A stretch of 64,000 bases of DNA from an uncultured Pseudomonadales bacterium. Its GTDB lineage: Bacteria; Patescibacteriota; Microgenomatia; UBA1400; PJMF01. The notes under the pieces are model-generated. The model was not told the DNA's origin, made no database searches, and saw nothing but the letters and a program-made list of their open reading frames with translations. Within the stretch, counting starts at the first letter, position 1, and each line of letters starts with the position of its first letter. Both the position numbers and the translations under genes were made by a program. The stretch lies in contig CAYSQA010000002.1 in assembly GCA_964433225.1 (NCBI GenBank), forward strand, positions 8,642 through 72,641, read 5' to 3'. Shown here piece after piece: positions 1-52,174 of the stretch.

Positions 1-218
1 AGAATATATGCGGTCTCATTATGAAGATTGAAAGGCAGCGCATGATTGAGAAAAAAAGCTTGGAGCAAAAAGAAGTTCAAACTCATATAAACCAAGTTTG
101 TCACAAGGAGGATTGCTGATATTTTAAAGACAAAGAGCACCAAACTTTCACGGATAGGCTCGTTGATGTATTGACTCTCAGATTCTTCTGTCTGAGTTTG
201 GATAGTGGGTCTCGTCAT
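1..218 (-). CDS. Partial ORF running off the window start; hypothetical membrane protein (N-terminus MTRPTIQTQTEE...)
   Basis: ATG at 218-216 on the minus strand stays open to position 1. The product has a hydrophobic stretch (FKISAILLVTNLVYMSLNFFLL). It is not in the ORF track because it is truncated. No family recognised. Confidence 0.25.
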   Translation of the reverse strand, partial: MTRPTIQTQTEESESQYINEPIRESLVLFVFKISAILLVTNLVYMSLNFFLLQAFFLNHALPFNLHNETAYI

Positions 219-238
219 ATAATTCTACTTGGTAATTT

Positions 239-430
239 TCAATGATGGGAAGAATTCTTTTTTGTGGTTTGATCATGATCACCATGTCCCAAAAAAAGAT
301 GAATTAAAGGACATGCAAAAATGATAAGTCCAAACACACCCAAACTTTGTACCTGAGGAATAAAAAGGTACGCCAACACAACGATACCCGCTAAAACTAA
401 GCACAGAACTAAGCGATTACCATGTTTCAT
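239..430 (-). CDS. Small two-TM His-rich membrane protein, DUF2933-like
   Basis: 63 aa with two hydrophobic helices, a CPLIHLFLGHGDHDQ motif and a His-rich C-terminus. This resembles the small metal-operon DUF2933 family; the name is from memory. It is the last gene of the copper island. Confidence 0.5.
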   Translation of the reverse strand: MKHGNRLVLCLVLAGIVVLAYLFIPQVQSLGVFGLIIFACPLIHLFLGHGDHDQTTKKNSSHH

Positions 431-501
431 ATGTCCTCCTATCTGTGAACTATATAAAAAGAAACATGAAGCTAGGATGAAATGAGTGTACTAACAAGCT
501 G

Positions 502-2109
502 TTAGATAACTTTAAATTGGCTCATCATTCCCGACTCCATATGCTCAGGAATATGGCAGTGCACCATCCAGTCTCCAGGGTTTGAGATATCAAGTAAAAT
601 ATCAACAGTCTCACCTCTACCAACCAAAACTGTATCTTTCCACACCAAGTTGTCGTTCGGTACTCCGTTTTTTGCCAGTACCAAAAATCTTTGACCATGG
701 AAGTGAATCGGGTGCTGCATCGGATGCATGGAGTTAGGATCATTGAAAATACTGATTTTAACTTTATCTCCCTGTTCAAACTGCCAATCGATATCCATAT
801 TCTCTTTGTTGGTCTGTGAATCAACAAGCTTCCACTTAAGCGTCTTTGTGGTTGACCCTTGATTCATCATGCTCATGGTATCTTCCCATTCAATGGGTCC
901 TTCATCATCGCCCATTTGCATAGCACTGTTACTCATCATCTGCCCATTGCCCATCATGTGCATATCGTGACCACCTCCGCTTGTAGAGCCTTCACTACTA
1001 GAACTGCCCATAACCAACGATAGAGTAATTTTCTTGTCCGGAGTTTTGTCAATAAACGAGCGGTACTGTGCCAGCTCTTGTACCTTGTCATTGTTAACTC
1101 TGGAAACCGGCAGGTAGGAAGTAGTCACAGTGCTAGGTTCAACGGCTATTGTGCCCAATGAATATGATTTATCAGGAGTTTTGTTGGCTATTGTGAAATC
1201 ACCAGACTGCGTAAAGTAGACTTCCACCACATATCGCTCTGAGGGTCCAATAGTGACTGATTCGACCCATTCTTCTTTCTCATATTTGCCGCTATCCCCA
1301 CCAACCAATTTCATACGAGCACTGGGGATAGTGAAGTTAAACACTCTAGTGTTGGCGGCATTAGTGATATAAAACCGTACCCGCTCACCCTGTTTTATAG
1401 GTAGTTTAAAGTCGCTCTCGCCATTTATGAGCATCGTGTTGCCAAACCTCCCCATAAGCGTGTGATTGACGGTCTCTTTATCAAATGAGGCAATCTGTCC
1501 GTTTTCCAGCAGAATATCATCAAGAAATAGTGCTTCTTCACGATCCACCTCAACCCAATAGTCTGGCTGTTCAGGAGTTACGATAAAGTTGCCGTACAAC
1601 CCCAGCTCCTGAGCATAATCCTCACGGATATGCGGGTGGTACCAATACACACCTTCATTAGGGAATTTCAGTTGATAGGTGAAGGATTGACCAGGTTTAA
1701 TAGGTTTCTGGGTAACATCTGGCACTCCATCAAATTTATTATCAACCCTGACTCCGTGTGAGTGGAGGGTAGTGTCAACATCAGTGTTATTGGTAAAGTT
1801 GACGGTTATTTGAGCTCCTTTCGAAACTTTAATCAAAGTCCCAGGGATAGAGCCGTTATACGCCAGCATTTTCACTTCCTGACCGTTGATTGTTTTTTTA
1901 ACAATCTCTGCCGATAAATTATAGGTGTCTCCGTCTTTTAGAGAAACAGTTTCTTGTGGTTTCGCGGCAGGAAGATTTGCAGGTGAAGAAACAAAAGAAC
2001 CACCTTCATTCTTATCCAGTTGTAAAAATTTGTTACTAAAAAATAAAAACACTCCCAAAATTAGGATCACAATCAACACTATTACAGAAAAAAATTGTTT
2101 GCTTTTCAT
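502..2109 (-). CDS. Multicopper oxidase (CueO/PcoA-like cuprous oxidase) with Met-rich insert
   Basis: Multicopper-oxidase copper ligand motifs are present: HSHG, WYHPHIRE, HPIHFHG and HCHIPEHMESGMM. A Met-rich segment follows (GHDMHMMGNGQMMSNSAMQMGDDEG...MSMMNQG). There is an N-terminal TM/signal. Confidence 0.85.
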   Translation of the reverse strand: MKSKQFFSVIVLIVILILGVFLFFSNKFLQLDKNEGGSFVSSPANLPAAKPQETVSLKDGDTYNLSAEIVKKTINGQEVKMLAYNGSIPGTLIKVSKGAQITVNFTNNTDVDTTLHSHGVRVDNKFDGVPDVTQKPIKPGQSFTYQLKFPNEGVYWYHPHIREDYAQELGLYGNFIVTPEQPDYWVEVDREEALFLDDILLENGQIASFDKETVNHTLMGRFGNTMLINGESDFKLPIKQGERVRFYITNAANTRVFNFTIPSARMKLVGGDSGKYEKEEWVESVTIGPSERYVVEVYFTQSGDFTIANKTPDKSYSLGTIAVEPSTVTTSYLPVSRVNNDKVQELAQYRSFIDKTPDKKITLSLVMGSSSSEGSTSGGGHDMHMMGNGQMMSNSAMQMGDDEGPIEWEDTMSMMNQGSTTKTLKWKLVDSQTNKENMDIDWQFEQGDKVKISIFNDPNSMHPMQHPIHFHGQRFLVLAKNGVPNDNLVWKDTVLVGRGETVDILLDISNPGDWMVHCHIPEHMESGMMSQFKVI

Positions 2110-2138
2110 ATATCATTTACAAACTCCCTTTAATTATC

Positions 2139-2771
2139 TCACCTAGCTAGCTTTTCCGGTGATTGGTTTTTATATGTCTCAATATATTTTTGAATTAGTG
2201 CTTTATCAACAGAATCAAGCCGCATCATTTTTCCCCAGGAAGCCACTACAACTTTACTATCGTTTCCTGAGCGAGGAGATACTACTGTGCTTTGCGAGTT
2301 TTGCTTGCCGATCTCTTCCAGAGCTTCAATATCTTCTTCTGAAATATCTTTGTATGAGATCCAAATGCCTCCATGTTCCAGATTGTGAACGCCTGCTTTG
2401 TCATCTATTTCCTCATTATAAATACCCCAATTTTTAGCTGTTGCTAAGTGTCCACCAGAAGTAGGTGGATTTGTTTGGTACTCAACTGCCGTATCGGCTG
2501 CTATGTGATCCCTACCTTCTATTTCAAACTCCTCAACTTTTCCTTCCAAAGTAATGGTTTCTATTTGCTGTTCAAATTCAATCTGCTCGGGAGACTTCTT
2601 GGTCAATTGGATGGATCCAAAAATGCCTGCAATCAAAATAATGACAACCAAACTCCAGTTGCGAGCCTTCTTCAACAATTTTGCTTTCTTCTCTCGTTCC
2701 TTCCGTAGGGTTTTGAGGTTTTTCTTACGCTCATGCTTAGGTAATTGATTCCATTCTTCTGGATAATCCAT
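2139..2771 (-). CDS. Membrane-anchored DUF3105-like protein
   Basis: Lys-rich N-terminus, one TM and a conserved PPTSGGH...HNLEHGG core. This recalls DUF3105; the family name is from memory. Confidence 0.5.
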   Translation of the reverse strand: MDYPEEWNQLPKHERKKNLKTLRKEREKKAKLLKKARNWSLVVIILIAGIFGSIQLTKKSPEQIEFEQQIETITLEGKVEEFEIEGRDHIAADTAVEYQTNPPTSGGHLATAKNWGIYNEEIDDKAGVHNLEHGGIWISYKDISEEDIEALEEIGKQNSQSTVVSPRSGNDSKVVVASWGKMMRLDSVDKALIQKYIETYKNQSPEKLAR

Positions 2772-2829
2772 GGTTTCCTTTCAAATTAGTTCCCAGGTTT
2801 CCTTTCAAATTAGTTCCCATATATACTGT

Positions 2830-3579
2830 TCAAACTGCCAAAATATTCAAATTAAAAAACTGAAGCAACCACATTGATAATAATTCGACCTTACCTAATA
2901 TAAGGAGCGCACCTATCAGTAAAATAACAATTCCCGCAAGTAAATTTAGATATCTACCCAACCTTTTGGTGATCACTAGTTTGCTTGAGATTTTTTCAAA
3001 AAATAAAGCTACAACCAAAAATGGGATACCTAACCCAATGCCGTATGCAAGTAGTAGGCTCATTCCTTGCCAAACTGTTTCGGTTTGAGCTGCCCAAAAT
3101 AAAATTACCGCCAGTACAGGACCAATACATGGAGTCCAGGCAAAACCAAATGTTAAGCCAACAAAAAAAGAATTGAGTTTGCGGAATTTAGTTGGTGATA
3201 CAGATAGTCGTAATTTTCTTTCTTGGTACAAAAAATGAGGTTTGATGATGTTTAACATAAAAAGGCCCATGATAATGAACAAAAAGCCACCTAGTTTCCT
3301 AATAAGAGGCTTATATATCCCCAAAAACCTTCCCAGAGTATTAGTGGTAGCGCCTAGTAAAACAAATACAAAAATAAAGCCAATCGTGAAGATCAAGCCA
3401 TTAATAAATATATCTCGTTTAAAAACTTTCTTGTGCGAATCGTCTATTGTCCTAGAAGTAGCAATGCCAGATAGATAAGCAATATACGTTGGGACCAAGG
3501 GCAGCAAACACGAGGCAAAAAAGGTAATGACACCTCCAATAAAAGCTATTAATAAGTTTACCTGTGAACCGTCAAACAT
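2830..3579 (-). CDS. ccdA: CcdA/DsbD-family thiol-disulfide electron transporter
   Basis: Polytopic membrane protein with the two conserved Cys motifs CLLPLVP and TPCIGPVL typical of CcdA/DsbD transmembrane domains. Confidence 0.8.
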   Translation of the reverse strand: MFDGSQVNLLIAFIGGVITFFASCLLPLVPTYIAYLSGIATSRTIDDSHKKVFKRDIFINGLIFTIGFIFVFVLLGATTNTLGRFLGIYKPLIRKLGGFLFIIMGLFMLNIIKPHFLYQERKLRLSVSPTKFRKLNSFFVGLTFGFAWTPCIGPVLAVILFWAAQTETVWQGMSLLLAYGIGLGIPFLVVALFFEKISSKLVITKRLGRYLNLLAGIVILLIGALLILGKVELLSMWLLQFFNLNILAV

Positions 3580-3647
3580 ATTTTCAATTACCTAATGACC
3601 CACAGGTGATAGGAAGTCTATCACCTGTGCTTCAATTTTTATTCGGA

Positions 3648-4427
3648 CTACAGGTATTTTTCGATAGCCTGTTTTACTTGTTCATATGGTAGGGCTCCTG
3701 GAATCATTTCTTGAACACCATCTTCTGTGACAATAAAGGTGCCAGGAGTGCCGCTTACCCCAGCTGCGCTCCCCTTTGCAAACTGGTCTTTAACTTTTTC
3801 TGCCATTTCATCACTATCTAGACATTTTTGCACAGCATTTTCGTTTGCACCTGCTTCAGCACCAAGTGGAGCCAAGTCTGATAGAGGAAACCCTGTTCCA
3901 TTTGAACTAGTTCTTTCAAAGTAGAGATCTACAAAATTCCAATAGGCTTCATTGCCAGCTAATTTACCAACACATTCCGAAGCTTCAGCGGCTTTTTGTG
4001 CATTTGCATGGAAGCTGAGTGGGTAATGTCGGTAAACCCAAGCCACTTGATCACCATACTCATCCATAACTTGTTGCATGGTGGGATGAAAACGTTGACA
4101 GAAAGGGCACTCAAAGTCTGAATATTCAACTAAAGTGACCTTTGCGTTTTTTGCTCCACGTATGTATTCATCTTTACCAACTTCTGGTAAGTTTCCAAGC
4201 TGATCTGCTGTCGGACCTGATGGGGCAGCAGGTGCAGCGGCCGTAGGAGCGCCACCTGCGTTATTGGTGGTACCAACAGTGTTACCACTTCTCAATATTT
4301 GGTTTTCTGTCCACAGCGAGCCACCAAAAAACCCAACGCCTAAAAATACAAAGCTAAGAGCAACTACTAAAAAATTTTGGTTGAGAAAGTTAAGTAATGC
4401 GCTAAATGAATAATCTGATTGTGACAT
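3648..4427 (-). CDS. Membrane-anchored thioredoxin-fold (DsbA-like) thiol:disulfide oxidoreductase
   Basis: N-terminal TM, Ala/Pro-rich linker and a thioredoxin fold with active site FECPFCQRF (CPFC). Confidence 0.75.
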   Translation of the reverse strand: MSQSDYSFSALLNFLNQNFLVVALSFVFLGVGFFGGSLWTENQILRSGNTVGTTNNAGGAPTAAAPAAPSGPTADQLGNLPEVGKDEYIRGAKNAKVTLVEYSDFECPFCQRFHPTMQQVMDEYGDQVAWVYRHYPLSFHANAQKAAEASECVGKLAGNEAYWNFVDLYFERTSSNGTGFPLSDLAPLGAEAGANENAVQKCLDSDEMAEKVKDQFAKGSAAGVSGTPGTFIVTEDGVQEMIPGALPYEQVKQAIEKYL

Positions 4428-4455
4428 AAGAAAGTTCTCCGATTAGTAATAATCA

Positions 4456-4469
4456 CCTACAACTGTAGG
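4456..4469. promoter_or_regulatory. Inverted repeat CCTACA-AC-TGTAGG (cop-box/bla-operator-like, TACAnnTGTA core) upstream of dsbA-like gene
   Basis: Perfect 6-2-6 inverted repeat in the 59-bp gap between the BlaR1-like stop and the DsbA-like start. A second copy is at 5845-5858. Confidence 0.55.
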
Positions 4470-4486
4470 AGATAAAATGTGTCTTG

Positions 4487-5497
4487 TCAATTAGAAAAAG
4501 TTGAAGTTGAGAAGGAAGCAGACACAAGAGGGGAGAAATTATGAACGCTGTCAGTTTCATATCCTGAGCAACCAGTTGTTTGACAACCAGTTCCCTCACT
4601 ACACACACCTCCAGCCATAGAAGCATAATTTGCTGTTGCTTTATTTGGTTCGACAAAAGCTATTCCCAACATAATCATTATGCTGAGAATGCTTGCCGCA
4701 AGTGGTTTAAGACTGATCCACTCAATATGATGTTTGTCCCCAACCAAAGACTCCACCCGTTTTTCTATTGGTGAAGTTGCAAAATTAGGAACTGCTTTGC
4801 TCGTATACTGTAAATGTAGCGCAAGTGACTCGCACAAATAATGTCTAGTTTTCTGCTTCTCAATCACAAAAGCATCTGCCATTAACTCAAACTCTGTTTG
4901 CAATTGTCGAGCCAAGTAGTCAATCAGGGGTACAAAAAATAACATAGAACTAACCAAGCGAGATATTAGCAACCAAAAAACATGGAAACTTTTCAAGTGA
5001 TACAGCTCATGGAGAATTACTGCCTCTAGTTGTTTTTCTGTGAGCTTGTTCACTAAGGCCTTTGAAACCACTATCTTGGGTTTGAGTAGGCCTACTGTGT
5101 AGGCAACCAACCTAGTATCGTAAATAACTGAAATCATCCCGTCTTCAAGTTGATGCTTTTCGACAATTCGTCCAAGTTTTTTTGGAATATGATCATTTGT
5201 TTTAAGTTGATTCAAACGTCTATGTTCCGATAAAAACATTTTTAGTCGCCATACAGTCATGCTTGTGCCAATAAATGCGATAAGTAATACAAAAGAAGAC
5301 ACCACACCATTGGGATTAAAATGAACGTGTTGATTGATATTCTTTAGAATTTCGCCACAAGTAGTTATAAATAGTTGGGGATGCAGAGTGGCCTTGGTTG
5401 CTATTAGATACGTTCCCAGCACCAAGACCAAGCCAGAAGCTATAGTAAATATCATTGATAAACTAATCTTAATTTTCATTATTTTGTAATTTTTCAA
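4487..5497 (-). CDS. BlaR1/MecR1-like M56 zinc-metalloprotease signal transducer with Cys-rich C-terminal tail (no beta-lactam sensor domain)
   Basis: Four predicted TM segments, an HEXXH motif (ILHELYHLKSFH) in the loop and a short C-terminus, GGVCSEGTGCQTTGCSGYETD. It overlaps the upstream repressor gene. The true start may be an internal Met (MKIKISL). Confidence 0.7.
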   Translation of the reverse strand: MKNYKIMKIKISLSMIFTIASGLVLVLGTYLIATKATLHPQLFITTCGEILKNINQHVHFNPNGVVSSFVLLIAFIGTSMTVWRLKMFLSEHRRLNQLKTNDHIPKKLGRIVEKHQLEDGMISVIYDTRLVAYTVGLLKPKIVVSKALVNKLTEKQLEAVILHELYHLKSFHVFWLLISRLVSSMLFFVPLIDYLARQLQTEFELMADAFVIEKQKTRHYLCESLALHLQYTSKAVPNFATSPIEKRVESLVGDKHHIEWISLKPLAASILSIMIMLGIAFVEPNKATANYASMAGGVCSEGTGCQTTGCSGYETDSVHNFSPLVSASFSTSTFSN

Positions 5498-5879
5498 TTA
5501 ATTTTTGACGAGTTTGGTCAGAAATATTACCTAATCCATCAACAAAAGCGATTAGGGCTTCTTCACCAAATTGATTGGTAAAACTCCCCATAGTCTGGTT
5601 TATTAAAGAAGAAAGAATGCTTTTTTGCTCTACAGCTGGTTTATATATATGCGTTTTGCCTTCCAAACTTCTCTCGAGCAATCTCTTGTCTACCAATCGA
5701 GTCATAATAGTTTGAACAGTATTGTAGGCAATTTTCCGACTTTGAGTTAGGCACTCAAGCACATCCCGAGTGGTGCAGGTTTTCTTTCTCCAAACGAAAC
5801 TCATCACTTCTTGCTCCAGTGGTCCTAGTGAAACATTTCTCATACCTACAAGTGTAGGATTTAACATTAAAAATTTCAA
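5469..5879 (-). CDS. BlaI/MecI/CopY-family winged-helix transcriptional repressor
   Basis: LGPLEQEVMSFVW...TTRDVLECL...IAYNTVQTIMTRLVDKRLLER matches the penicillinase-repressor family. It has no C-terminal CxC...CxC copper site. The likely true start is MRNVSLGP at 5843, directly downstream of the 5845-5858 operator. Confidence 0.8.
   Translation of the reverse strand: MKFLMLNPTLVGMRNVSLGPLEQEVMSFVWRKKTCTTRDVLECLTQSRKIAYNTVQTIMTRLVDKRLLERSLEGKTHIYKPAVEQKSILSSLINQTMGSFTNQFGEEALIAFVDGLGNISDQTRQKLIEKLQNNEN
5845..5858. promoter_or_regulatory. Inverted repeat CCTACA-AG-TGTAGG (cop-box-like) at the 5' end of the BlaI/CopY-like gene
   Basis: Perfect 6-2-6 inverted repeat. It lies 2 nt upstream of the preferred ATG at 5843, or inside the N-terminal extension if 5879 is the start. 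Confidence 0.5.
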
Positions 5880-5892
5880 TCAGAAGAAATCA

Positions 5893-7263
5893 TTACTTAA
5901 CTTCAACTACAGTCATCATTCCTGCTTCAGCATGTTCCAAGGCATGGCAGTGACTCGCCCATACACCCTCATCAAGAGGCATCAAGCCGATATCGACTGT
6001 TTCTTTTGATTTGATAAGTACCGTGTCACGCAAATACGGTTCATCCACTTGCTGACCATTTCGAGCTAACACTTTGAAAAATTGACCATGTAAGTGCATT
6101 GGGTGGAGCCGAGCCGACTCATTTGTAAAGCGGATCACATTATACTCACCTTTTTTTAAGGTAATTGGATCGTAATCAGGGTAGACTTTGTCATTGATTG
6201 TCCATTCGATGCCAAACTGGCCGCCTCTACGGGCATTCAATCGATACTCTTTATCAATAATTCTTTTAGTGTCACTTGTCCAGTCAGGAAATACTGTTGC
6301 TGCTGGTGGTTGGATATCTTTCACCGCGTCAACATTTCCATCAATGGTGATTGTGGCTAGTGTGTTAGATTGACGAGTGAATGTATCCCGTATTACATAC
6401 GGTTTTGAGCGTGAAAGTTGGGGAACAAAAACATCAACATCAATTCGATTACCCGGAGCTAGTTCAAATCCCTGAGCTGTAAAAGGCTCTTTTGCCAGCA
6501 TGCCATCAACGGCAAAGCCCTGTACTTCCAAATCTCCAAAATCAAGCTTGTAAACGCGAGCGTTCGATGTGTTTACTAATCTCAGTCTTAATCTCTCGCC
6601 AGCTTTTGCTTGTAATTCATAGTTTAGTTGTCCATTTACCGTAATAACATTACCCCAACGTCCATCATGCATCAAATCATGACCTGTATTGAATCGTTCG
6701 TCTAGTTGACCATTTTCAGTCAGCCGCCAATCATCAAGCACTAAGACTTGATCTTGGTCATAAGTAGGCTCTTTCGAATCTTCAACCACAATCACTCCAT
6801 ACAACCCACGTTCTACCTGCTCACTACCTCGCACATGAGGGTGGTACCAAAAGGTCCCCGCATCTTTGGGAGTGAACTCATACGTAAATTGTTCTCCTGG
6901 TTGAATTGGTTCCTGAGTTACACCTGGCACTCCATCCATAGCATTAGGAACCCTGATGCCGTGAAAATGGATTGTCGTGGGCTGGAGCAAATTGTTGGTA
7001 AAATTTATTTTGAGTGTCTCACCTTTGGTAATTCGAATTTCTGGTCCAGGTACTTGATCGTTGTAACTCCATACATTGAAAGAGGAGTTTTGCCCAAGTG
7101 AAATAGTAGTTTTTTGCGCTATTAGGTCAACTTCTTTTATTTCCCCAGTAGCTTGAATTGATTCGGGATATGGTAACTTGGAGTTGAGTGGCGACCAAAA
7201 ACGCAGTCCCACCAGAATGGCAGCAAAGACCAAGCTAATGAAAAAATATTTCCTGTTCGCCAT
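5893..7263 (-). CDS. Multicopper oxidase (second paralog, no Met-rich insert)
   Basis: HFHG, WYHPHVRG, HPMHLHG and HCHALEHAEAGMM motifs. The start was chosen at MANRKYFF (ATG 7263-7261), preceded by GGAGG and 1 nt after the copB TAG stop. The ORF-track start at 7308 is an upstream extension. Confidence 0.85.
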   Translation of the reverse strand: MANRKYFFISLVFAAILVGLRFWSPLNSKLPYPESIQATGEIKEVDLIAQKTTISLGQNSSFNVWSYNDQVPGPEIRITKGETLKINFTNNLLQPTTIHFHGIRVPNAMDGVPGVTQEPIQPGEQFTYEFTPKDAGTFWYHPHVRGSEQVERGLYGVIVVEDSKEPTYDQDQVLVLDDWRLTENGQLDERFNTGHDLMHDGRWGNVITVNGQLNYELQAKAGERLRLRLVNTSNARVYKLDFGDLEVQGFAVDGMLAKEPFTAQGFELAPGNRIDVDVFVPQLSRSKPYVIRDTFTRQSNTLATITIDGNVDAVKDIQPPAATVFPDWTSDTKRIIDKEYRLNARRGGQFGIEWTINDKVYPDYDPITLKKGEYNVIRFTNESARLHPMHLHGQFFKVLARNGQQVDEPYLRDTVLIKSKETVDIGLMPLDEGVWASHCHALEHAEAGMMTVVEVK

Positions 7264-7264
7264 A

Positions 7265-9397
7265 CTACGCCTCCACTGCCAGCTTGGCATTTCGCAGAGA
7301 CATAGCATTAACTACAACAATCACCGAGGAGAGACTCATTAACAAGGCTCCTACTGCTGGACTCAGACGAAATCCAAAAGGAATAAACAATCCTGCTGCA
7401 GCTGGAATGGCGACGATGTTATAGCCAAGTGCCCACCATAAATTTTGCAGCATTTTGGCATAGACTTTTCTGGAAAGAACAATCAACCGTACGATGTGCT
7501 GAGGATTGGACTGCGTCAAGATAATGTCGCCAGCTTCAACCGCCACATCAGTACCTGCCCCAATGGCTACACCCGCATTAGCTTGGGTTAAGGCAGGAGC
7601 ATCATTAACCCCATCACCAGCCATGACTACTACATTGCCAGCATCTTGTAGCTCCCGAATATACTTATACTTATCCTCTGGCAAAACTTCAGCAAATACC
7701 GTGTCTATGCCCAGTTGTTTAGCAATTGGCTCTGCAGCTGACTTTGTGTCACCAGTCAGCATCGCAACCTTAACTCCCAACTGGTGTAGCTGCGCCACAG
7801 CCTGCTTGGACTCTTCTTTCACTTGATCACTCAGGGCAATAACACCTAAAACTTTATTTTTATCTGCCACAAAAACTGGTGTTTTGCCTTCTGTAGAAAG
7901 TTTCTTGTATACCTCAGCTACATTTTCATCCCAAACCTTTCGTTCTTCCATTAAGCGTTTGTTGCCCAGGAAATATTGTTTTTCGTTATACGTTCCTTCC
8001 ATACCTTTACCAGCTAAGTTCTTGATTTTGGAAGCCTCAGTCAATGTGATCTTCTCTTTTTGCAAGTGCTGAACAATTGCCATACCAATCACATGAGAAG
8101 AATGCGTTTCAATACTACCTGCTATCTGAAGTAATTGTTTTTCTGTACCTGAAAAAACAGTGATACCAGTTACACCAAACTCACCTTTAGTTAGAGTGCC
8201 TGTCTTATCGAAAACAACATAATCAGCTGCTTTGACGACTTCTATTTTTCCCATATCCTTGATAAACACCCCATTTTTGACTGCCAAACGAGTAGCAATA
8301 GTAGAGACAGTGGGAATAGCTAATCCAAGGGCATGAGGGCAGGCAATTACTAAAACCGTGATAGCCAGTGTGGCAGCAAACACAACCGACTCACCAACTA
8401 GTATTGACCATATCAGAAGCGATGCGATAGCAACTCCAAGTGCAGTAAAAGTCAACCATTTTGCAGCACGGTCAGCTAGCTTTTGTGCTGATGGTTTGGT
8501 TTGTTTAGCTTCAGAAATAAGGCTTTGAATTTGACCGATTGTTGAAGATTCACCAACTCGCATTAGTTTAACTTCAACAGAACCATCAATACTTATGGCA
8601 CCAGCTACCACTTCACTTCCTGGTTTTTTTTCGACAGGTTTTGATTCTCCAGTAATATGTGCTTCATTGAAGTTACCACTGCCCTTTAGTATTTCACCAT
8701 CAGCAGGGACTTTTTCACCCGGTTTAACAATAACGACATCGCCTTCTTTCAACGAAGTCAGTTCAACTTCTGTAACACCATTCTTGGTTTTAAGGTGAGC
8801 TTCCTTTGGTAGCAATTTAGCAACTTCTTGCAACGCATCTCCTGCCGCAGTCGATGATTTGGCTTCCAAAAAGTGTCCAAAAAGTAGCACCCAAATCAAA
8901 GTTGCTATTTCCAAGTAAAACTCCATTTCAATCTGAGGCAAGAAAGTTGCCGCAGCAGAAAAGAGATATCCTGAACCAACAGCCAAAGAAACCAAGGTCA
9001 TCATGCCATACTGCTTCATTTGAATCTCATGACGAGCGTGTTCAAAGAAAACTAAACCAAAATAGAAAATGATTGAAGCAATGGCAAATTCTAGATATGA
9101 GCGGAGAGCGAAATCCGGCATACCAAGTAACGTAACCGCTGGTTCAGAAAAAATTGCTAGTGGTACGAGTAGGGCAGTGACAATAAAAAAACGTTTTAGA
9201 AAGTCAGCTGCCGCTTCAGGACTAGCCATCATACTAGCGTGATCATGCTCAACATGGCCATTGTCCATCTCACTTTTTTTCACCAAATACATACCTCCAC
9301 ACTTAGGACACTTGCCTGGCTTTTTCTCCATGATCTCTGGATGCATTGGACAAGTGTAATAGTCTTGGTGGTCAGTGTGTAGGTGGTTGTGTTTCAT
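7265..9397 (-). CDS. copB: Copper-translocating P1B-type ATPase, CopB-like (CPH motif, His-rich N-terminus)
   Basis: His-rich N-terminus MKHNHLHTDHQDYYTCPMHPE...CPKCGGM. TM motif IACPHALG (CPH). Phosphorylation motif DKTGTLT and hinge motif GDGVNDAPAL. Confidence 0.9.
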   Translation of the reverse strand: MKHNHLHTDHQDYYTCPMHPEIMEKKPGKCPKCGGMYLVKKSEMDNGHVEHDHASMMASPEAAADFLKRFFIVTALLVPLAIFSEPAVTLLGMPDFALRSYLEFAIASIIFYFGLVFFEHARHEIQMKQYGMMTLVSLAVGSGYLFSAAATFLPQIEMEFYLEIATLIWVLLFGHFLEAKSSTAAGDALQEVAKLLPKEAHLKTKNGVTEVELTSLKEGDVVIVKPGEKVPADGEILKGSGNFNEAHITGESKPVEKKPGSEVVAGAISIDGSVEVKLMRVGESSTIGQIQSLISEAKQTKPSAQKLADRAAKWLTFTALGVAIASLLIWSILVGESVVFAATLAITVLVIACPHALGLAIPTVSTIATRLAVKNGVFIKDMGKIEVVKAADYVVFDKTGTLTKGEFGVTGITVFSGTEKQLLQIAGSIETHSSHVIGMAIVQHLQKEKITLTEASKIKNLAGKGMEGTYNEKQYFLGNKRLMEERKVWDENVAEVYKKLSTEGKTPVFVADKNKVLGVIALSDQVKEESKQAVAQLHQLGVKVAMLTGDTKSAAEPIAKQLGIDTVFAEVLPEDKYKYIRELQDAGNVVVMAGDGVNDAPALTQANAGVAIGAGTDVAVEAGDIILTQSNPQHIVRLIVLSRKVYAKMLQNLWWALGYNIVAIPAAAGLFIPFGFRLSPAVGALLMSLSSVIVVVNAMSLRNAKLAVEA

Positions 9398-9416
9398 AAC
9401 ATTGTTTGCAGTTCAT

Positions 9417-10007
9417 TTACTTTTTATGAGCTTGTTTAAGAAAGAAATATGTTCCAGAGGTAAAGAATGCAATGGCAACAATCCGAGTTGCTGTCCCAAG
9501 GAAACTATATGATCCATATCCCATCATTGAACCAAAGCCCATCATATTAGTCGAGCCGCTAAGACTTCTATTGTTGGCGTAGCCCATCATGCCTCTGCCC
9601 ATCATTCCAGGACCATAGTTTGTATTGGTACCGTAACCTAAGTAAGCTTGTCCCATAGTAATATGCATTTGACGCAAAGAGTCCGAACCTTCACCGCCCA
9701 TCATCCTATCCATTGCCTCATGTGCTTCTCCCGGATGCTGAAGTTCCATTACAGCATCGCCTAATCGCTCCCATTCATCATCACTGACTTTTGACAAGTC
9801 AAGTTCTTGTACTGTCTGTACATTTTGACTGCTGAGTACATCTTGCAAAACTACTTCTACAGACTCGGCGTGTTCTTCCTTTGCACTTACTTCAGTTTCA
9901 TCCCCATCGAATCCCATCATCGAACCCATCTGTGCCTGCGTCTTAGGAACTACAAAACCAAGCGAAAGAAATGTAAGTAATAATAGGGTGGTAACAGTTT
10001 TTTTCAT
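9417..10007 (-). CDS. Secreted Met/Gly-rich protein with C-terminal membrane anchor; putative Cu(I)-binding
   Basis: Signal peptide, then repeated MMG, GMMG and MMGY motifs and a C-terminal hydrophobic helix. AAAGGAG SD. First gene of the copper island. Confidence 0.6.
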   Translation of the reverse strand: MKKTVTTLLLLTFLSLGFVVPKTQAQMGSMMGFDGDETEVSAKEEHAESVEVVLQDVLSSQNVQTVQELDLSKVSDDEWERLGDAVMELQHPGEAHEAMDRMMGGEGSDSLRQMHITMGQAYLGYGTNTNYGPGMMGRGMMGYANNRSLSGSTNMMGFGSMMGYGSYSFLGTATRIVAIAFFTSGTYFFLKQAHKK

Positions 10008-10174
10008 ACAAACTCCTTTTATGAACTAAGTTAATCATAAAGCAGATTAAGAGAAGATGAAATCGCACTTACACGGCTGTTAAACCAACATTTGTTGTTT
10101 TCAGCGTTTTTTAGCAAGCCCCATCAACCCATTTAGTCATAATGGACGGGTCTATCAGAACTTTTCGGTACTTG

Positions 10175-10259
10175 CGGAGGCAATGGGATTTGAACCCATG
10201 AACCGGAGATCCGGTCAGGTTTAGCAAACCTGTGCAATTGGCCACTATGCGATGCCTCC
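10175..10259 (-). tRNA. tRNA-Ser (anticodon GCT), long variable arm
   Basis: Manual fold: acceptor GGAGGCA/TGCCTCC, anticodon stem CAGGT/ACCTG, loop TTGCTAA, variable-arm stem CCGGA/TCCGG, T-loop TTCAAAT. Confidence 0.85.
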
Positions 10260-10363
10260 TAGTTTTGATCAGCCCAGATTATACCAGTCATTTTTTGGGT
10301 AGACTATGTTAAAAAACCCAACTCTTGAGAGTTAGTTCAGAAGTCGGTAGACTTAAGCTAGTT

Positions 10364-10882
10364 ATGAAAAAGTCTTTTTTATTATTAGTGGTTTTGGTTG
10401 CGGCAGTGTTTTTTACTGGTTGTCAGGCTCCAGAGGGGGACGATAACTTGGAGTTGAAAAAAATTAATGGAGGTTTAGAAATAGATAAGGCTGATCAAGT
10501 TGTTCCCCAGGTGGGTATTCCTGCCGATGAAGATGATTTTGCTAATCCACTGACAGAACAGGCTCAGAAAAGTGGTCTTACTACAGACGATGTTCAACAA
10601 GTTAGGGAGAAGCTCGCTGAGAGTTTTAAGATGGATTTAGCAGAAATTCAGATTACGGCCGAAGCAGAAAGTAGTTTAGAGTTTATGACTGGTTTTGTGA
10701 ACGTTGGTGAAGGTGATAAAGGAGGTATTTATTTTGCAGCCAAAACCACTGATGGTTGGCAAATTGCTCACAATGGGGTTGGTTTGGTTTATTGTGAGAT
10801 AGTTGATAAATATAACTTCCCGGTGGGAATGATTCCCAAGTGTTATGATGCAGTGACGGGAATGTCCAAAGAAAGAGAATAG
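10364..10882 (+). CDS. Lipoprotein, hypothetical
   Basis: MKKSFLLLVVLVAAVFFTGC signal peptide plus lipobox. The start at 10364 is preferred over the ORF-track start at 10325. Confidence 0.6.
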   Translation: MKKSFLLLVVLVAAVFFTGCQAPEGDDNLELKKINGGLEIDKADQVVPQVGIPADEDDFANPLTEQAQKSGLTTDDVQQVREKLAESFKMDLAEIQITAEAESSLEFMTGFVNVGEGDKGGIYFAAKTTDGWQIAHNGVGLVYCEIVDKYNFPVGMIPKCYDAVTGMSKERE

Positions 10883-10884
10883 TT

Positions 10885-12093
10885 GTGCAATCATCTTTAT
10901 TAAAAAAAGCTGCTAAGATTGACCAGTCGGCAGCTGATATTTCTTTATATGATTCTGCTTTTCAACATACCACCAGTAATAATTTGCCTTTTTTGGTAAC
11001 AGCAGAGACTTTTCATTTGGCTGAAGATGAAAAAAATAAGTTATTAGCCTTGGGCCCAGCTCTTAAGGAATTATTAAATCAAGCTGCTGCTTTGTATCAG
11101 AAGCCTTTTAACACTTTTTTTATTAGGCCAGACGTTTTGATGACCGCTGATGGGTTGAAAGTTTGTGAAATAGAAACTCAACCATTTGGTTTGGCTTTAA
11201 TAATTTTTTTACAAACTTCTTATCGTGAGTGGACTAAGGTGCTTGGTCAGGATGTTAGATATATTTTTACTGGTTTTATGCAGTGGTGGCAACAAAGTAC
11301 TGGCACAAATCAAGGAATTTTTGTTTATTCAGATCATACTGATCGTTTTAAAGGTCAGTTGGTTTATTTGGCCAATAGTTTGAAGCAGTATGGTGGTGAT
11401 TTTTCGGTTAGATTTATTGAAGATCTCACGGTTGAAGAAATTCAAAACAATTTTTTTTATCGTGCTTTTTATACTTATGAAGCTAGTTTAGATGAAGCAA
11501 TTAATAGATTTCTGCTTAGCAAACCAAAGCTATTTCCTCAGATAGATCCATATTTTGAAGGTAAGTATTTATTAGCTGATTATTTTGCTGATGATAATTT
11601 GCGAGCCAAATTATCTAGTGAAACAATAAAATTATTGGACCAGTTATTATTGCCTACTTGGTTTATTAAAAAATCAATTCCAGCTGAATTTCCTTTAACT
11701 ATTAAAAATTGGCTTGATTTAGTTAATTTTCCTAGAGAACAATTAAGGTTTGTTGTTAAAATGGCTGGTAATCACCCCGATGCTTCTTGGGCAAAAAGTG
11801 TTAACTTTTTACATAAAAAATCCAAAGTACAATTGAAGCAATTACTCCAATCTATTGAGGAAAGCAAACAGACTTGGTTGATTCAACCTTTTCTTAGTAA
11901 TAAAAAAGTAAGTATTACTTATGCCACTGAGGATTTTATGGACTTACTAATTATGAAAGGTCGAATTAGATTGACTCCATATTTCGAATATCAGACTGGT
12001 AAATTACTTAATGTAAAAGCAACGGTGAGAAGAAATACTTTGTTGATCCATGCTTCCAGTGATAGTGTTAATACCATTGTCAGTGACAACTAG
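10885..12093 (+). CDS. Hypothetical protein (possible ATP-grasp-like fold)
   Basis: Complete 402-aa ORF. The VCEIETQPFG segment weakly resembles the ATP-grasp (E-x-N) loop. No confident family. Confidence 0.5.
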   Translation: MQSSLLKKAAKIDQSAADISLYDSAFQHTTSNNLPFLVTAETFHLAEDEKNKLLALGPALKELLNQAAALYQKPFNTFFIRPDVLMTADGLKVCEIETQPFGLALIIFLQTSYREWTKVLGQDVRYIFTGFMQWWQQSTGTNQGIFVYSDHTDRFKGQLVYLANSLKQYGGDFSVRFIEDLTVEEIQNNFFYRAFYTYEASLDEAINRFLLSKPKLFPQIDPYFEGKYLLADYFADDNLRAKLSSETIKLLDQLLLPTWFIKKSIPAEFPLTIKNWLDLVNFPREQLRFVVKMAGNHPDASWAKSVNFLHKKSKVQLKQLLQSIEESKQTWLIQPFLSNKKVSITYATEDFMDLLIMKGRIRLTPYFEYQTGKLLNVKATVRRNTLLIHASSDSVNTIVSDN

Positions 12094-12102
12094 AAAGAAA
12101 TC

Positions 12103-12672
12103 ATGAACTTAACCAGCAAAAAATATTTAATCTTTGATTTTGATCGGACAATTGATACGCTCATTATTGATTGGAGTCGTTCTCGTGAAGGGTGGTTAAA
12201 CTTAGCTAAAGAGTTGACCGGTGATAATAGTTTAATGATTATGGGTAATCCTTATGTTTTTCAAGCAGAAATTATTGATCGAGTTGGTCAACCCGCGATT
12301 GAGGCTTTTCAAACTTTTACTAAAAATTATGAACAACAAAACTATGCTAGTCATGAACCCAACATGAGGCTGGTTCAGTTTATTCAGGATAATCAAGATC
12401 GTTATCAGTTTTTTTTGTGGACTAGTAATCATGGCGAAGTTATTAAGCCTATTTTACAAGATTTAGGTTTAGACCAATCCTTTAGACAGATTATTACTAG
12501 AGATTTGGTTGACTATCCTAAACCTCGATCTGCTGGTTTTGACTTAATTTTTGTTCCTGGTACAAATAAAAAAGACTATTTAATGATTGGTGATAGTGAG
12601 AATGATCAATTGGCGGCTGAGGCCGCTGGCATTGATTTTATCAATGTAGTTGATTTTGAAGAGTTAATCTAA
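12103..12672 (+). CDS. HAD-superfamily hydrolase
   Basis: Motif I FDFDRT and motif IV GDSENDQLAAEAAG. Confidence 0.75.
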   Translation: MNLTSKKYLIFDFDRTIDTLIIDWSRSREGWLNLAKELTGDNSLMIMGNPYVFQAEIIDRVGQPAIEAFQTFTKNYEQQNYASHEPNMRLVQFIQDNQDRYQFFLWTSNHGEVIKPILQDLGLDQSFRQIITRDLVDYPKPRSAGFDLIFVPGTNKKDYLMIGDSENDQLAAEAAGIDFINVVDFEELI

Positions 12673-13614
12673 TTTTTTTAATGAACCAGTGACAGTACCA
12701 ACAATGACTGTTAAGTCAGAAAAAATTTGTAGAATTGGTAGCCACCACCAGCCAGCTGGTACATATTTTTTATTTTTTCCAATAGCCCAACTACTATAGC
12801 CAATCATTGCTAGCAGTGTAATTATTAGGCCATAGTTAGTTAAAAAATTAACTGGTTGGAAAAATAAACCAAGCCAACTAAAAAATAAAACTAAAATCAA
12901 TAAAAAATATCTAGCAAAAATTAAACCTACTTTTGGTCTAAAGATTGTTGCTTCGGCGTCTCCCAAAGCAAAGCGGTAAATCATTACCATAAAAGACCAT
13001 AAATTTTTTCTAGGTAACCAAGCAACTTGAGCTTCTTTGGCAATCTCAATATTAATTTTTCTTTTTTCTAGTTCTTTGGCAAAAGCATAATCTTCATTAT
13101 GGTTAAGTCGTTCATTGAAGCCACCAACTTCTTGCCAAGTTTTCTTGTTAATTAGCATCGATCGAGTAGCCGGCAAAAAATTATCATCAACTTTATCTGG
13201 CATCACCAATACATATGGAATAATTGCTTGTTGAAAGTGATTTTTTGCTAGACCATAGTAGTAACCAGCAACCACTGGAGCTTGAGTTTGGTGTCGTTTT
13301 TTTGCTAGCTTTTTCAACCAATCTTTATTGGGGATACACCCAGCATCAGTAATGGCAACTAAATCATTTTTAGCTTTTTTGATAGCTAAGTTTCTGCCAA
13401 TGCTCCTATTACCACTTTTTTGATAAATTTTTAGTTTGTTTTTGAAAAATTTTTGTTGTTGGTAAGTTTTTAAAATTTCCCAGCTTCGGTCAGTCGAGCC
13501 ACCATCAACAATAATTAGTTCGTTGATTTGCTGAGTTTGTTTTTTAATGGCATTTAACAGTAAATCCAGAGTTGATTCTTCGTTAAAAATCGTTATAACT
13601 AAACTAATCTTCAT
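12664..13614 (-). CDS. Family 2 glycosyltransferase with C-terminal TM region
   Basis: N-terminal GT-A signature VITIFNEE...IIVDGGSTDRS and a hydrophobic C-terminal third. Confidence 0.8.
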   Translation of the reverse strand: MKISLVITIFNEESTLDLLLNAIKKQTQQINELIIVDGGSTDRSWEILKTYQQQKFFKNKLKIYQKSGNRSIGRNLAIKKAKNDLVAITDAGCIPNKDWLKKLAKKRHQTQAPVVAGYYYGLAKNHFQQAIIPYVLVMPDKVDDNFLPATRSMLINKKTWQEVGGFNERLNHNEDYAFAKELEKRKINIEIAKEAQVAWLPRKNLWSFMVMIYRFALGDAEATIFRPKVGLIFARYFLLILVLFFSWLGLFFQPVNFLTNYGLIITLLAMIGYSSWAIGKNKKYVPAGWWWLPILQIFSDLTVIVGTVTGSLKKLD

Positions 13615-13651
13615 GATAGGTTATTATAACTTTTAAAATTATTGTTTTTTA

Positions 13652-14656
13652 ATGAAAAAAATTCTTGTTTTTACGCCATCTTTCCCCCCCAATATGGGTG
13701 GAGTTGAACGTCATGTTTTAGAAACAACTCACTACTTAAGCAGAAAAAAATATTCAATTAAAATTATTACTGAACAAACAAAAAAATCAGCCATTTTTGA
13801 AAAAAAACCTGGCCTAGAAATTTATCGTTTTAGTTATCCTAAGGTAAAATTTTTTGGCTTGTTAAATATCTGGTGGCAACTATTTAATAAATATTTTGCT
13901 TTGATTAGGGAGGCTGAAGTAATTCATATTCATGATGTTTTTGTTTGGTATCTACCTTTTAAACTACTGTTTTGGCGAAAACCAGTAGTGACAACCTTTC
14001 ATGGTTGGGAAGGTAAATTTCCTTTACCGCAAAAAAATAAATTATGGCGTAAATTGGGAGTATTTTTATCAACTAAAACAATTGCTGTTGGTAAATATTT
14101 AGAGAAATATTATGACTTTTCTGCCAACATGGTGATTTATGGTGGAGTTCATATTCCTCAAAAAGATTTTGTTAAGCAGAACCTCTTGTTGTATGTTGGT
14201 AGGTTGAGTTATGACACCGGTTTACCATTGCTACTTCAAAGTTTAAAAGACCAATCTTGGCAAGGCAGGGTGGTTTTTTGTGGAGATGGTGAATTAAGAG
14301 AACAAGCAGCTCTATTTGGTGAGGTGACTGGTTTTAGAAATCCGATGCCTTATTTAAAAAAAGCTAAGCTTGTTTTTGCTGGTGGTTATTTATCGGTTTT
14401 AGAAGCCTTTGCTTATAAATGTTTAGTTTTGGCTGCTTATAGTAATCCTCTCAAAAGAGATTATTTTTCTTTGTCACCTATGGGTAAATTTGTTCAGGTA
14501 GTCAAAAGTAGCAGCGAGTTGTCAAGAAAATTGGCTGTTTTGCAAAAAAATACTAACTTTCATCAACATAAATTGACTCAAGCTTATGAATTTGCCAGGC
14601 AACAAAGTTGGCAGCGGATTGCCGAGATTTATATTGAGCTTTATGAGAGTTTATAG
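13652..14656 (+). CDS. GT-B (GT4-like) glycosyltransferase
   Basis: N-terminal PPNMGGVERHV motif typical of the GT4 N-domain. The size (334 aa) fits. Confidence 0.7.
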   Translation: MKKILVFTPSFPPNMGGVERHVLETTHYLSRKKYSIKIITEQTKKSAIFEKKPGLEIYRFSYPKVKFFGLLNIWWQLFNKYFALIREAEVIHIHDVFVWYLPFKLLFWRKPVVTTFHGWEGKFPLPQKNKLWRKLGVFLSTKTIAVGKYLEKYYDFSANMVIYGGVHIPQKDFVKQNLLLYVGRLSYDTGLPLLLQSLKDQSWQGRVVFCGDGELREQAALFGEVTGFRNPMPYLKKAKLVFAGGYLSVLEAFAYKCLVLAAYSNPLKRDYFSLSPMGKFVQVVKSSSELSRKLAVLQKNTNFHQHKLTQAYEFARQQSWQRIAEIYIELYESL

Positions 14657-19091: not shown

Positions 19092-19098
19092 GATATAG

Positions 19099-20727: not shown

Positions 20728-20732
20728 AAGTT

Positions 20733-21815: not shown

Positions 21816-21845
21816 TGATTTGAAATAGGGTATGATAGTTGGTAT

Positions 21846-22445: not shown

Positions 22446-22508
22446 AAATTGCTTGTTTTTTTACACTAGTTTTCTCGGTACTGAGTTTGTTATTATAGAT
22501 TTACAAAT

Positions 22509-24319: not shown

Positions 24320-24331
24320 AATGGGGTAAGG

Positions 24332-49853: not shown

Positions 49854-49914
49854 TTTTTGTCAAGTTTTTCCTACTCTGGCTTCTTTGACTTTTGTGTGTA
49901 TAATTATACATCTT

Positions 49915-51186: not shown

Positions 51187-51211
51187 ATATAATACTGAGG
51201 TTCTTTATTAT

Positions 51212-51283
51212 TCCCCTGTAGCTCAGCGGCAGAGCAGGAAGCTGTTAACTTCAAGGTCGTAGGTTCGAATCCTACCGGGGGAG
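51212..51283 (+). tRNA. tRNA-Asn (anticodon GTT)
   Basis: Manual fold: acceptor TCCCCTG/CGGGGGA, D stem GCTC/GAGC, anticodon loop CTGTTAA, T arm GTAGG-TTCGAAT-CCTAC. Confidence 0.85.
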
Positions 51284-51359
51284 CACCTTTATTTTTCTCA
51301 AGAACAATATCCTAATAACTCAAGACCATTCTGTGGAGGGTTGAACTCTTGTTATAATT

Positions 51360-52160: not shown

Positions 52161-52174
52161 ATTGGTCATTTAGA

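Follow-up and report, generated by a model that had tools for sequence, protein, structure and literature searches.

The stretch of DNA analysed here, called the window below, comprises 64,000 nucleotides (nt) from the genome of a Patescibacteria group bacterium (GenBank assembly GCA_964433225.1, contig CAYSQA010000002.1, positions 8,642 to 72,641). Its first 10 kb carry a minus-strand run of genes for copper efflux, copper oxidation and thiol-disulfide exchange, and this run belongs to a mobile genomic island. Our preferred reading, to which we give a probability of roughly 60%, is that the island is a copper and envelope-thiol defence system under an atypical BlaI/BlaR1-type repressor–protease pair (BlaIR), which would sense extracytoplasmic copper or copper-driven thiol oxidation.

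An initial annotation of this DNA had described ten genes forming an operon-like copper-detoxification island in a small-genome organism. All ten open reading frames (ORFs) are present with the coordinates that it gave, and its family calls hold in Pfam (the Met-rich protein falls in no Pfam or NCBIfam family). The small-genome host is likewise borne out by the Patescibacteria assignment. The genes are all co-oriented, with gaps of −11 to 71 nt between the ten, and are as follows:

9417–10007, minus strand: Met/His-rich exported protein of 196 aa, with no Pfam or NCBIfam match
7265–9397, minus strand: CopB-type P1B ATPase (Pfam HMBD, PF19335; E1-E2; HAD)
5893–7263, minus strand: MCO1, a three-domain multicopper oxidase (MCO; Pfam, NCBIfam, ligand motifs)
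5469–5843, minus strand: BlaI/MecI-type winged-helix repressor of 124 aa (Penicillinase_R, PF03965, E=1.4e-24)
4487–5479, minus strand: short M56/BlaR1-type membrane Zn-protease of 330 aa (Peptidase_M56, PF05569)
3648–4427, minus strand: DsbA-like thioredoxin-fold oxidoreductase with a CPFC motif (PF13462/PF01323)
2830–3579, minus strand: CcdA, of the DsbD transmembrane-domain family (PF02683)
2139–2771, minus strand: DUF3105 protein (Pfam)
502–2109, minus strand: MCO2, a multicopper oxidase with a Met-rich insert (Pfam, NCBIfam, ligand motifs)
239–430, minus strand: DUF2933 mini-membrane protein (Pfam; two transmembrane [TM] segments, His-rich C-terminus)
1–218, minus strand: 5′ part of the next island gene (176 aa, weak bPH_2 match; the full gene is visible in related loci L089–L094)

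As the last line indicates, the run does not stop at position 239, where it had been taken to end: an eleventh co-oriented ORF begins at 218 and leaves the window, and the island goes on for a further ~9–10 kb.

Judged by its sequence, the regulator is a BlaI/BlaR1-type repressor–protease pair in which a short Cys-rich tail replaces the penicillin sensor. The repressor's nearest entries in the Protein Data Bank (PDB) are Mycobacterium tuberculosis BlaI (2g9w), followed by Bacillus licheniformis BlaI and Staphylococcus aureus MecI/BlaI, and a conserved ...FV(D/E)... segment aligns with the M. tuberculosis protein. Its best NCBIfam match is the CopY/TcrY model TIGR02698, and this match covers the winged-helix-turn-helix (wHTH) positions 6–87 of 130 with a score of 57.6 bits, versus a cut-off of 122. 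Copper sensing by CopY is defined by a C-terminal CxC-x4-6-CxC site for Cu(I)/Zn(II) (PMC7253601). In the protein studied here, the only two Cys residues (positions 23 and 31) lie in the N-terminal wHTH and the C-terminus is Cys-free; because the CxC site is missing, the repressor is not expected to sense copper directly. The CopY-type copper binding that the initial annotation implied is thus contradicted by the missing C-terminal site, by BlaI and MecI as the nearest relatives and by the partnership with a coupled M56 protease.

The gene for that protease overlaps blaI by 11 nt, and the two are predicted to be translationally coupled. The protease retains the invariant residues H157-E158-xx-H161 (HExxH), E198xxxD202 (ExxxD) and R241, and the best Foldseek matches of its AlphaFold2 (AF2) model are the cryo-EM structures of S. 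aureus BlaR1 (8exs, 8exq, 8exp). It has four predicted TM segments and a tail of ~50 aa after TM4 that carries Cx5Cx4C; no match to the penicillin-binding (transpeptidase) domain PF00905 was found in Pfam. Three cysteines (C41, C299 and C304) are invariant and a fourth, C293, is conserved at >90%. The loop between TM1 and TM2 contains one invariant Cys together with conserved His residues. Given the predicted TM positions, the BlaR1 topology and the positive-inside rule, loop and tail probably both face outward. The family was delimited with a profile search of 1.84 billion representatives, in which the short form makes up 129 clusters at E<=1e-30. The Cys triad occurs in 107 of the 141 full-length members among the top family representatives, and is kept in M56 relatives at ~30% identity.

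Two promoters in the run overlap an identical palindrome:

5844–5879, minus strand: P(blaI), with −35 TTGAAA (5879–5874), −10 TACACT (5856–5851) and operator CCTACACTTGTAGG (5858–5845)
4456–4490, minus strand: P(dsbA), with −35 TTGACA (4490–4485), −10 TACAGT (4467–4462) and operator CCTACAGTTGTAGG (4469–4456)

The 14-bp palindrome, CCTACAnnTGTAGG, is exact at 5845–5858 and 4456–4469 and has no other copy in the 64 kb, for which base composition predicts 0.002 exact copies. In a promoter scan, both promoters rank among the best promoter-like sites of the region, have 17-nt spacers (TTGAAA-17-TACACT and TTGACA-17-TACAGT) and carry the palindrome over the −10 hexamer; P(dsbA) is the top sigma-70-like match of the region (10/12). 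The cop-box core TACAnnTGTA occurs twice in the window, both times inside the CCTACAnnTGTAGG copies, and the operator matches 15/16 positions of the extended CopY consensus RNYKACANNTGTMRNY (PMC7253601). For CopY, the cop box (KACAnnTGTA) lies upstream of the ATPase operon; here, the motif stands before blaI and dsbA. Where a single cop-box-like operator had been proposed, there are therefore two exact palindromes, neither of them ahead of the Met-rich gene or copB, and the nearest match to the BlaI operator ahead of those two genes has three mismatches, which is chance level.

The blaI ATG is placed exactly 7 nt past the −10 element and has no Shine-Dalgarno (SD) sequence, so the blaI mRNA is read as leaderless; the transcript is apparently also autoregulated. 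Since there are two promoter/operator units and none for the Met-rich gene, copB and MCO1, the run has at least three predicted transcription units: Met-rich/copB/MCO1, blaI-M56, and dsbA-ccdA-DUF3105-MCO2-DUF2933, the last continuing into the next gene. The operon-like character noted earlier thus stands as far as co-orientation and short gaps are concerned; a single unit does not agree with the operator and promoter positions. No convincing intrinsic terminator splitting the run was detected in a scan, which returned fewer candidates than shuffled sequence. The junction of copB and its oxidase, GGAGGCGTAGTATG, is as first described, with the SD sequence, TAG, one nucleotide and then ATG, and GGAGG six bases upstream. 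The coupling to copB is thus confirmed, and the label is not: the coupled oxidase had been called MCO2, whereas it is the first in gene order (MCO1 here). The Met-rich/copB/MCO1 trio is probably transcribed separately in this copy of the island.

Comparison with related loci, the synteny check that the initial annotation had called for, reveals a conserved core. Close M56 homologues are found in Microgenomates, Pacebacteria, Levybacteria, Collierbacteria, Nomurabacteria and other Patescibacteria, and the order BlaI-M56-DsbA-X-DUF3105, in which X is CcdA or a protein with a GCASCG motif, recurs in these divergent genomes in essentially every locus that extends far enough. In every relative, the repressor gene overlaps an intact M56 gene. 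The promoter/operator recurs before blaI and dsbA in relatives whose M56 proteins are 39–62% identical and whose flanking DNA is unrelated. The 7-nt spacing from −10 to ATG upstream of blaI is kept in 10/10 close relatives examined, and the blaI palindrome is exact in 8/10 (L004 and L016 have a one-base variant); in distant relatives (~30% identity), the corresponding places are taken by ACTACAnnnGTAGT-type variants. Most relatives have a gene for CopB, MCO, the Met-rich protein, YHS, DUF302, Csp or CsoR no more than 10 kb from the core. The Met-rich/CopB module, upstream of the regulator in the window, follows the operator-controlled dsbA operon, in the same orientation, in L006, L015 and L016. 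Identities to L016 are 72% for DsbA, 77% for CcdA and 40% for M56, a mosaic which indicates that modules have been shuffled.

Among the copper effectors, the ATPase has CPH at residue 353 (TM4), DKTGT, NLWWALGYNIVAIP (NX5GYNX4P), MSLSSVIVVVN (MSxSSx5N) and a His-rich N-terminus, and scores 556 bits against TIGR01511 (cut-off 397). It conforms to the P1B-3 (CopB-type) signature and is a predicted copper exporter. The Met-rich protein consists of 9.2% Met and has 176 homologues, none of them functionally named, with M87, H91, H96, M99, D100, M102, M103, H115 and M118 invariant. Its gene is upstream of CopB in L006, L009, L015, L016 and L089 as well, and the protein may bind Cu(I) outside the membrane.

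Of the thiol-disulfide components, the DsbA-like domain has the disulfide isomerase 4n30 as its top PDB match (E ~1e-17), followed by the ScsC proteins 6nen, 6mhh, 4xvw and 4gxz from Caulobacter, Proteus and Salmonella (E ~1e-11); ScsC and ordinary DsbA/BdbD proteins match it about equally well. The protein carries an N-terminal hydrophobic segment. CcdA has six predicted TM segments and two Cys. DUF3105, the most conserved protein of the core, has one predicted TM segment after a Lys-rich N-terminus, no cysteine, and a C-terminal thioredoxin-like domain with invariant His/Glu residues; its role is probably metal-related. The stand-in for CcdA in many relatives is a multi-TM protein of 177–179 aa with a membrane-embedded GCASCG and a C-terminal PLVCG (e.g., L002 11840–13017, L004 11832–13015 and L006 11823–12356), often followed by a secreted, Cys-rich protein of 213–215 aa (GACCG, PCCCKC) with a His/Gly/Glu tail end. 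Neither has a family in Pfam or NCBIfam, and both are candidates for a new redox partner of DsbA. The defence had been called periplasm-style, a description that does not suit these proteins: most of those that are exported carry a hydrophobic segment at the N-terminus, and three (CopB, CcdA and DUF2933) are integral to the membrane, which fits a cell without an outer membrane (signal peptides and anchors are not distinguished here).

Several observations weigh against the preferred reading, and many of them are what would be expected under the main rival explanation, in which the core is a general envelope disulfide-stress module and the copper genes are frequent passengers on metal-resistance islands, so that copper is not the specific signal. 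In all relatives, also at ~30% identity, the second operator is followed first by dsbA, which is not a copper gene and is the universal neighbour of the regulator pair; the copper genes are frequent, not universal. In some loci, the metal genes near the core are of other kinds, or none is within reach: L002 and L014 have an ArsR-regulated P-type ATPase of the non-HMBD kind together with a CDF transporter, and in L017 and L023 no CopB was within reach. In the window, the efflux pump gene copB is not itself behind a BlaI operator. The Cys triad could serve equally well as a redox switch or as a Cu(I) site, and AF2 confidence is low in precisely the putative sensor segments (loop 34–55 and tail 278–330), so that a metal site cannot be modelled and a convergence of the cysteines is not visible. 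With CcdA replaced by a CxxC membrane protein in many relatives, electron flow in the family may be either reducing or oxidising, and both MCOs score under the curated equivalog cut-offs for CueO (NF008205) and CopA (TIGR01480). Even so, we consider the general disulfide-stress explanation unlikely. An operator-controlled promoter lies ahead of, and in the same orientation as, the genes for DUF2933 and MCO2 (with its Met-rich insert), and nothing like an intrinsic terminator intervenes; the Met-rich/CopB module follows the dsbA operon in the three loci named above; the flanks are dominated by copper-specific neighbours (HMBD-CopB, MCO, YHS, Csp, CsoR); and the solved structures closest to the DsbA-like protein include the copper-resistance proteins ScsC.

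The two oxidases raise a separate question, which is whether the substrates of MCO1 and/or MCO2 are others, such as phenolics, Fe(II) or Mn(II), making the cluster one of oxidative metabolism or metal oxidation rather than of copper defence. Laccases are among their close structural relatives, MCO1 is without a Met-rich segment, and the scores below the CueO and CopA cut-offs point the same way. Both proteins have three cupredoxin domains and the full HxH / HxH / HxH / HCHxxxHxxxxM ligand set, and when the possible reassignment to other substrates is checked, their best NCBIfam matches are still CopA and CueO, even though the equivalog cut-offs are missed. MCO2 has 10 Met in 40 residues (376–415), before the C-terminal copper ligands in a CueO-like placement, and MCO1 is coupled to the copper ATPase and adjoins it in L006, L016 and L089 too, as in the staphylococcal copB-mco loci (PMC10233261). 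A substrate other than copper is, in our judgement, improbable. The combination of efflux, two oxidases and a thiol-disulfide pair that was first proposed is borne out, the oxidases being putative cuprous oxidases. The remaining explanation, a single ten-gene operon with one cop box and a CopY-type repressor that leaves the DNA on binding Cu(I), the protease being accessory, can draw on the CopY/TcrY match, the TACAnnTGTA core with 15/16 consensus positions, the co-orientation and the short gaps, but is highly improbable in view of a match confined to the wHTH and far under its cut-off, the absent C-terminal CxC...CxC, BlaI and MecI as the nearest structures, the M56 overlap in every relative, and two operators with none before the first gene.

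Under the preferred reading, of a copper and envelope-thiol defence island controlled by a BlaIR pair, the parts would work together as follows. CopB would pump Cu(I) from the cytoplasm, the Met/His-rich protein would receive or buffer it outside the membrane, and the two exported MCOs would oxidise Cu(I) to Cu(II). The DsbA-like protein, kept reduced by CcdA, may repair wrong disulfides formed by copper catalysis or bind Cu(I), as ScsC/ScsB do. The sequences, with their positions and conservation, and the island status are shown; repressor binding, repressor cleavage and the inducing signal are predictions. A BlaI-type dimer on both CCTACAnnTGTAGG operators would keep the blaI-M56 and dsbA-ccdA-DUF3105-MCO2-DUF2933 operons off. 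The M56 protein would sense extracytoplasmic copper, or oxidation driven by it, via four cysteines, one in the first loop and the Cx4-5Cx3-4C triad in the tail; once activated, it would cleave the repressor, as BlaR1 does BlaI, inducing the DsbA/CcdA/DUF3105/MCO2 operon and the regulator pair. Once induced, DsbA/CcdA could return the sensor cysteines to the reduced state, which would complete a feedback loop. The trio of Met-rich gene, copB and MCO1 may be expressed constitutively, by read-through from the tRNA gene, or under an ArsR-type repressor or two-component system encoded outside the window. A more far-reaching version is that the Cys-tail M56 proteins are an unrecognised class of extracytoplasmic copper/thiol-redox sensor, in which four outward-facing cysteines would bind Cu(I) or become oxidised and thereby trigger cleavage of the BlaI-type repressor, and which DsbA/CcdA (with DUF3105) would reset in a homeostatic loop; we offer this tentatively, as possible and still doubtful.

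Three smaller elements in the run may affect expression:

10031–10050, no strand: palindrome TTAATC-N8-GATTAA, ~25–45 nt upstream of the Met-rich gene
3596–3634, minus strand: strong hairpin with a 17-bp stem in the dsbA/ccdA gap
2767–2814, no strand: 24-bp tandem duplication of the ribosome-binding-site region before the DUF3105 gene (copies 92% identical)

The palindrome is within 56 nt of upstream sequence that moves with the 18-kb island block described below, and has the 6-8-6 geometry of an ArsR-type site (see below) with different half-sites. It is a speculative candidate for the operator of a non-BlaI regulator acting on the unit that has no BlaI box. A hairpin of unrelated sequence, with a T-run, is found at the same dsbA/ccdA position in L016, so that the site may be a conserved one, where partial termination or mRNA stabilisation fixes the ratio of DsbA to CcdA. 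The gap between CcdA and DUF3105 is 58 nt in the window, L001 and L093, and 34 nt in L089–L092; the presence or absence of the duplication between island copies makes it a recent polymorphism.

Part of the evidence for mobility comes from the boundary with the adjoining tRNA gene:

10174–10259, minus strand: tRNA-Ser(GCT) (ARAGORN, Rfam), with the island immediately 3′ of it
10064–10173, minus strand: island-proximal junction segment, common only to copies at the same tRNA site

A sister genome (GCA_049322655.1, L095) is 93.4% identical to window positions 10174–24657, and its homology ends exactly at the 3′ end of tRNA-Ser(GCT); beyond are unrelated genes and no island. The island label of the initial annotation is therefore justified in the strict sense, as the sister genome shows the empty site. 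Homology of L090 and L091 reaches their contig ends at window positions 10127 and 10177, and that of L089 diverges at 10063. On its 102-kb contig, L089 has the same 18-kb block between unrelated flanks and without a recombinase; the block is 97–99.7% identical to L090, L091 and L092, and 93.9% identical to L094. Beyond the window start, the block has four small genes as well as genes for three DUF1573 proteins, of which one includes a rhodanese domain, for a histidine kinase and a response regulator, and for a repressor of the ArsR type. The distal end is occupied by a large serine recombinase in L090 and, at the same position, by a truncated ORF in L092. Island GC content is 40.7%, compared with 35.1% for the rest of the window, and is above that of any equally long stretch of the rest. 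We conclude from these comparisons that window 1–10173 is, by all appearances, the tRNA-proximal half of a mobile genomic island, whose shared block measures about 18 kb, and at least about 19.5 kb when the recombinase end is counted. No direct repeat of the tRNA 3′ end occurs within window 1–10400 (the far island end is off-window). The initial annotation does not mention the insertion site at tRNA-Ser, the island's mobility or a regulatory core common across the phylum.

Two other origins for the block were considered and rejected. An assembly artefact does not agree with the recovery of the same block, 97–100% identical to the window, in independent assemblies from six samples. As regards a phage, nothing phage-like appears among the genes examined, although no phage-specific search was made.

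Some related cores are beside type IV secretion system (T4SS) genes (TrbC/T4SS pilin, PrgI-like, TraC-like, VirB4/TraG-type ATPases) or relaxase (Replic_Relax) and ArdC-like genes, at L006 4243–9420 and L004 3718–9436; such neighbours suggest that Patescibacteria have elements capable of conjugation or mobilisation. A related island with a large serine recombinase is close to rpoD in L002 and L003, and in L002 it abuts tRNA-Asn (L002 6465–8111). The same rpoD–tRNA-Asn arrangement exists in the window at 49885–51284, followed by low-GC genes without family matches (51360–54785), possibly a further insertion. The records of L009, L010, L014, L017, L018 and L022 are titled “uncultured Pseudomonadales/Gammaproteobacteria bacterium”; because their gene content and closest relatives are those of Patescibacteria, these titles look like mislabels.

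Several known systems resemble parts of this one. The predicted regulator is like BlaI/BlaR1 (MecI/MecR1) in that the repressor gene is upstream of and overlaps the M56 gene, in the HExxH, ExxxD and Arg residues, in its apparent autoregulation, in the TACA/TGTA palindrome over the −10 element and in a fold nearest to S. aureus BlaR1. About 94% of BlaIR-type systems are without a beta-lactam sensor, and their signals are unknown (PMC13492132); an atypical majority is also described in bioRxiv 10.64898/2026.08.03.742534. The lack of a transpeptidase sensor domain is shared with such atypical systems, including M. tuberculosis Rv1846c/Rv1845c, C. difficile CenIR and P. aeruginosa PvmSR. In contrast to them, the proteins studied here have a ~50-residue Cys-triad tail and a loop Cys; the operator-predicted regulon is DsbA/CcdA/DUF3105/MCO, not beta-lactamase or cell-wall genes; and the Cys-tail family has so far been seen only in Patescibacteria, on mobile islands. 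The literature searched contains no report of a copper or thiol signal for any BlaIR system, and nothing specific on a BlaR1–copper link, on DUF3105, or on copper islands and integrative elements of Patescibacteria. Similarity to CopY/CopR of Firmicutes extends to the PF03965 superfamily, the TACAnnTGTA core and the association with a copper P-type ATPase (PMC7253601), but the CxC site is missing, a protease partner is present, and the ATPase is not operator-proximal.

The thiol-disulfide genes recall the Scs proteins of Salmonella, Proteus and Caulobacter, in which a DsbA-like protein and a DsbD-family membrane transporter also belong to a copper-linked locus. There, the reducing route ScsB/ScsC binds Cu(I) and keeps envelope proteins safe from mis-oxidation catalysed by copper (PMC10907172, PMC8900818, PMC5524982). 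The island differs in having a minimal CcdA instead of the multidomain ScsB (there is no ScsB orthologue), no ScsA or ScsD, an N-terminal hydrophobic segment that suggests membrane attachment, and BlaIR control in place of a CpxR/CueR-type regulator. The efflux genes recall the copB-mco and copXL loci for copper hypertolerance that Staphylococcus aureus and Listeria have acquired by horizontal transfer (PMC10233261): in both cases CopB is immediately followed by an MCO, on mobile DNA and in addition to a core CopA system (in the window, arsR/YHS-copA at 59856–62583). Here, however, the phylum and the regulator are different, Met-rich, DsbA/CcdA, DUF3105, second-MCO and DUF2933 genes are added, the island is integrated at a tRNA gene, and some copies have a large serine recombinase at their far end. 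Finally, the MCOs are like CueO and the Thermus MCO in the three cupredoxin domains, the complete ligands and (for MCO2) the Met-rich segment; they differ from CueO in falling below the equivalog cut-offs, in an N-terminal hydrophobic segment without a twin-arginine motif, and in the lack of a Met-rich segment in MCO1. Thus, copB-mco on mobile DNA, Dsb-like proteins in copper tolerance and tRNA-associated islands are known kinds of thing. What is new is the combination of a putative Cys-tail BlaR-type sensor, a predicted DsbA/CcdA/DUF3105/MCO regulon driven by it and an island that circulates among Patescibacteria.

The operator-defined regulon and the Cys signature together give a testable hypothesis for the signal, which would be copper or thiol oxidation. 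If the more far-reaching version given above is true, it would supply the first defined non-antibiotic signal for the atypical BlaIR group, and DUF3105 would acquire its first function, as a His-based, Cys-free thioredoxin-fold metal protein. Three uncharacterised families (DUF3105, the Met/His-rich protein preceding CopB and the 177–179-aa CxxC substitute for CcdA) are tied to copper and envelope redox, and the cassette of promoter, operator, repressor and protease is compact enough to be rebuilt in a model host. The island also indicates that ultra-small Patescibacteria exchange a sizeable metal-defence element; we found little on such elements in the literature searched.

Elsewhere in the window there is a second copper module, at 59856–63712 on the plus strand. 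It starts with an ArsR(HTH_5)-YHS fusion regulator, continues with a CopA-type P1B-1 ATPase (60367–62583; CPC, N-terminal HMA domain) and ends with a DsbD_2/CcdA-like membrane domain fused to a cupredoxin-like domain (62597–63712). The CopA protein is >90% identical to one on a 652-kb contig of the sister genome, so the module is probably part of the core genome and not of the island, and it is a second independent link between the DsbD family and copper in this lineage. The arsR-YHS/copA unit has the palindrome ACATATTC-N8-GAATATGT (59872–59895) at its 5′ end. ATATTC-N8-GAATAT has its sole exact copy in the window here and recurs upstream of the off-window ArsR-type gene of the island (L089 18372–18395); the palindrome common to the core and island ArsR-type genes may be an operator that both use, with cross-talk between the two regulators as a possibility. 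Translation probably begins downstream of the annotated TTG start (59856). Lastly, the gene at 56492–57703 (minus strand) encodes a protein with both leucine-rich repeats and a Ser/Thr protein-kinase domain, an architecture that is unusual among small-genome bacteria.

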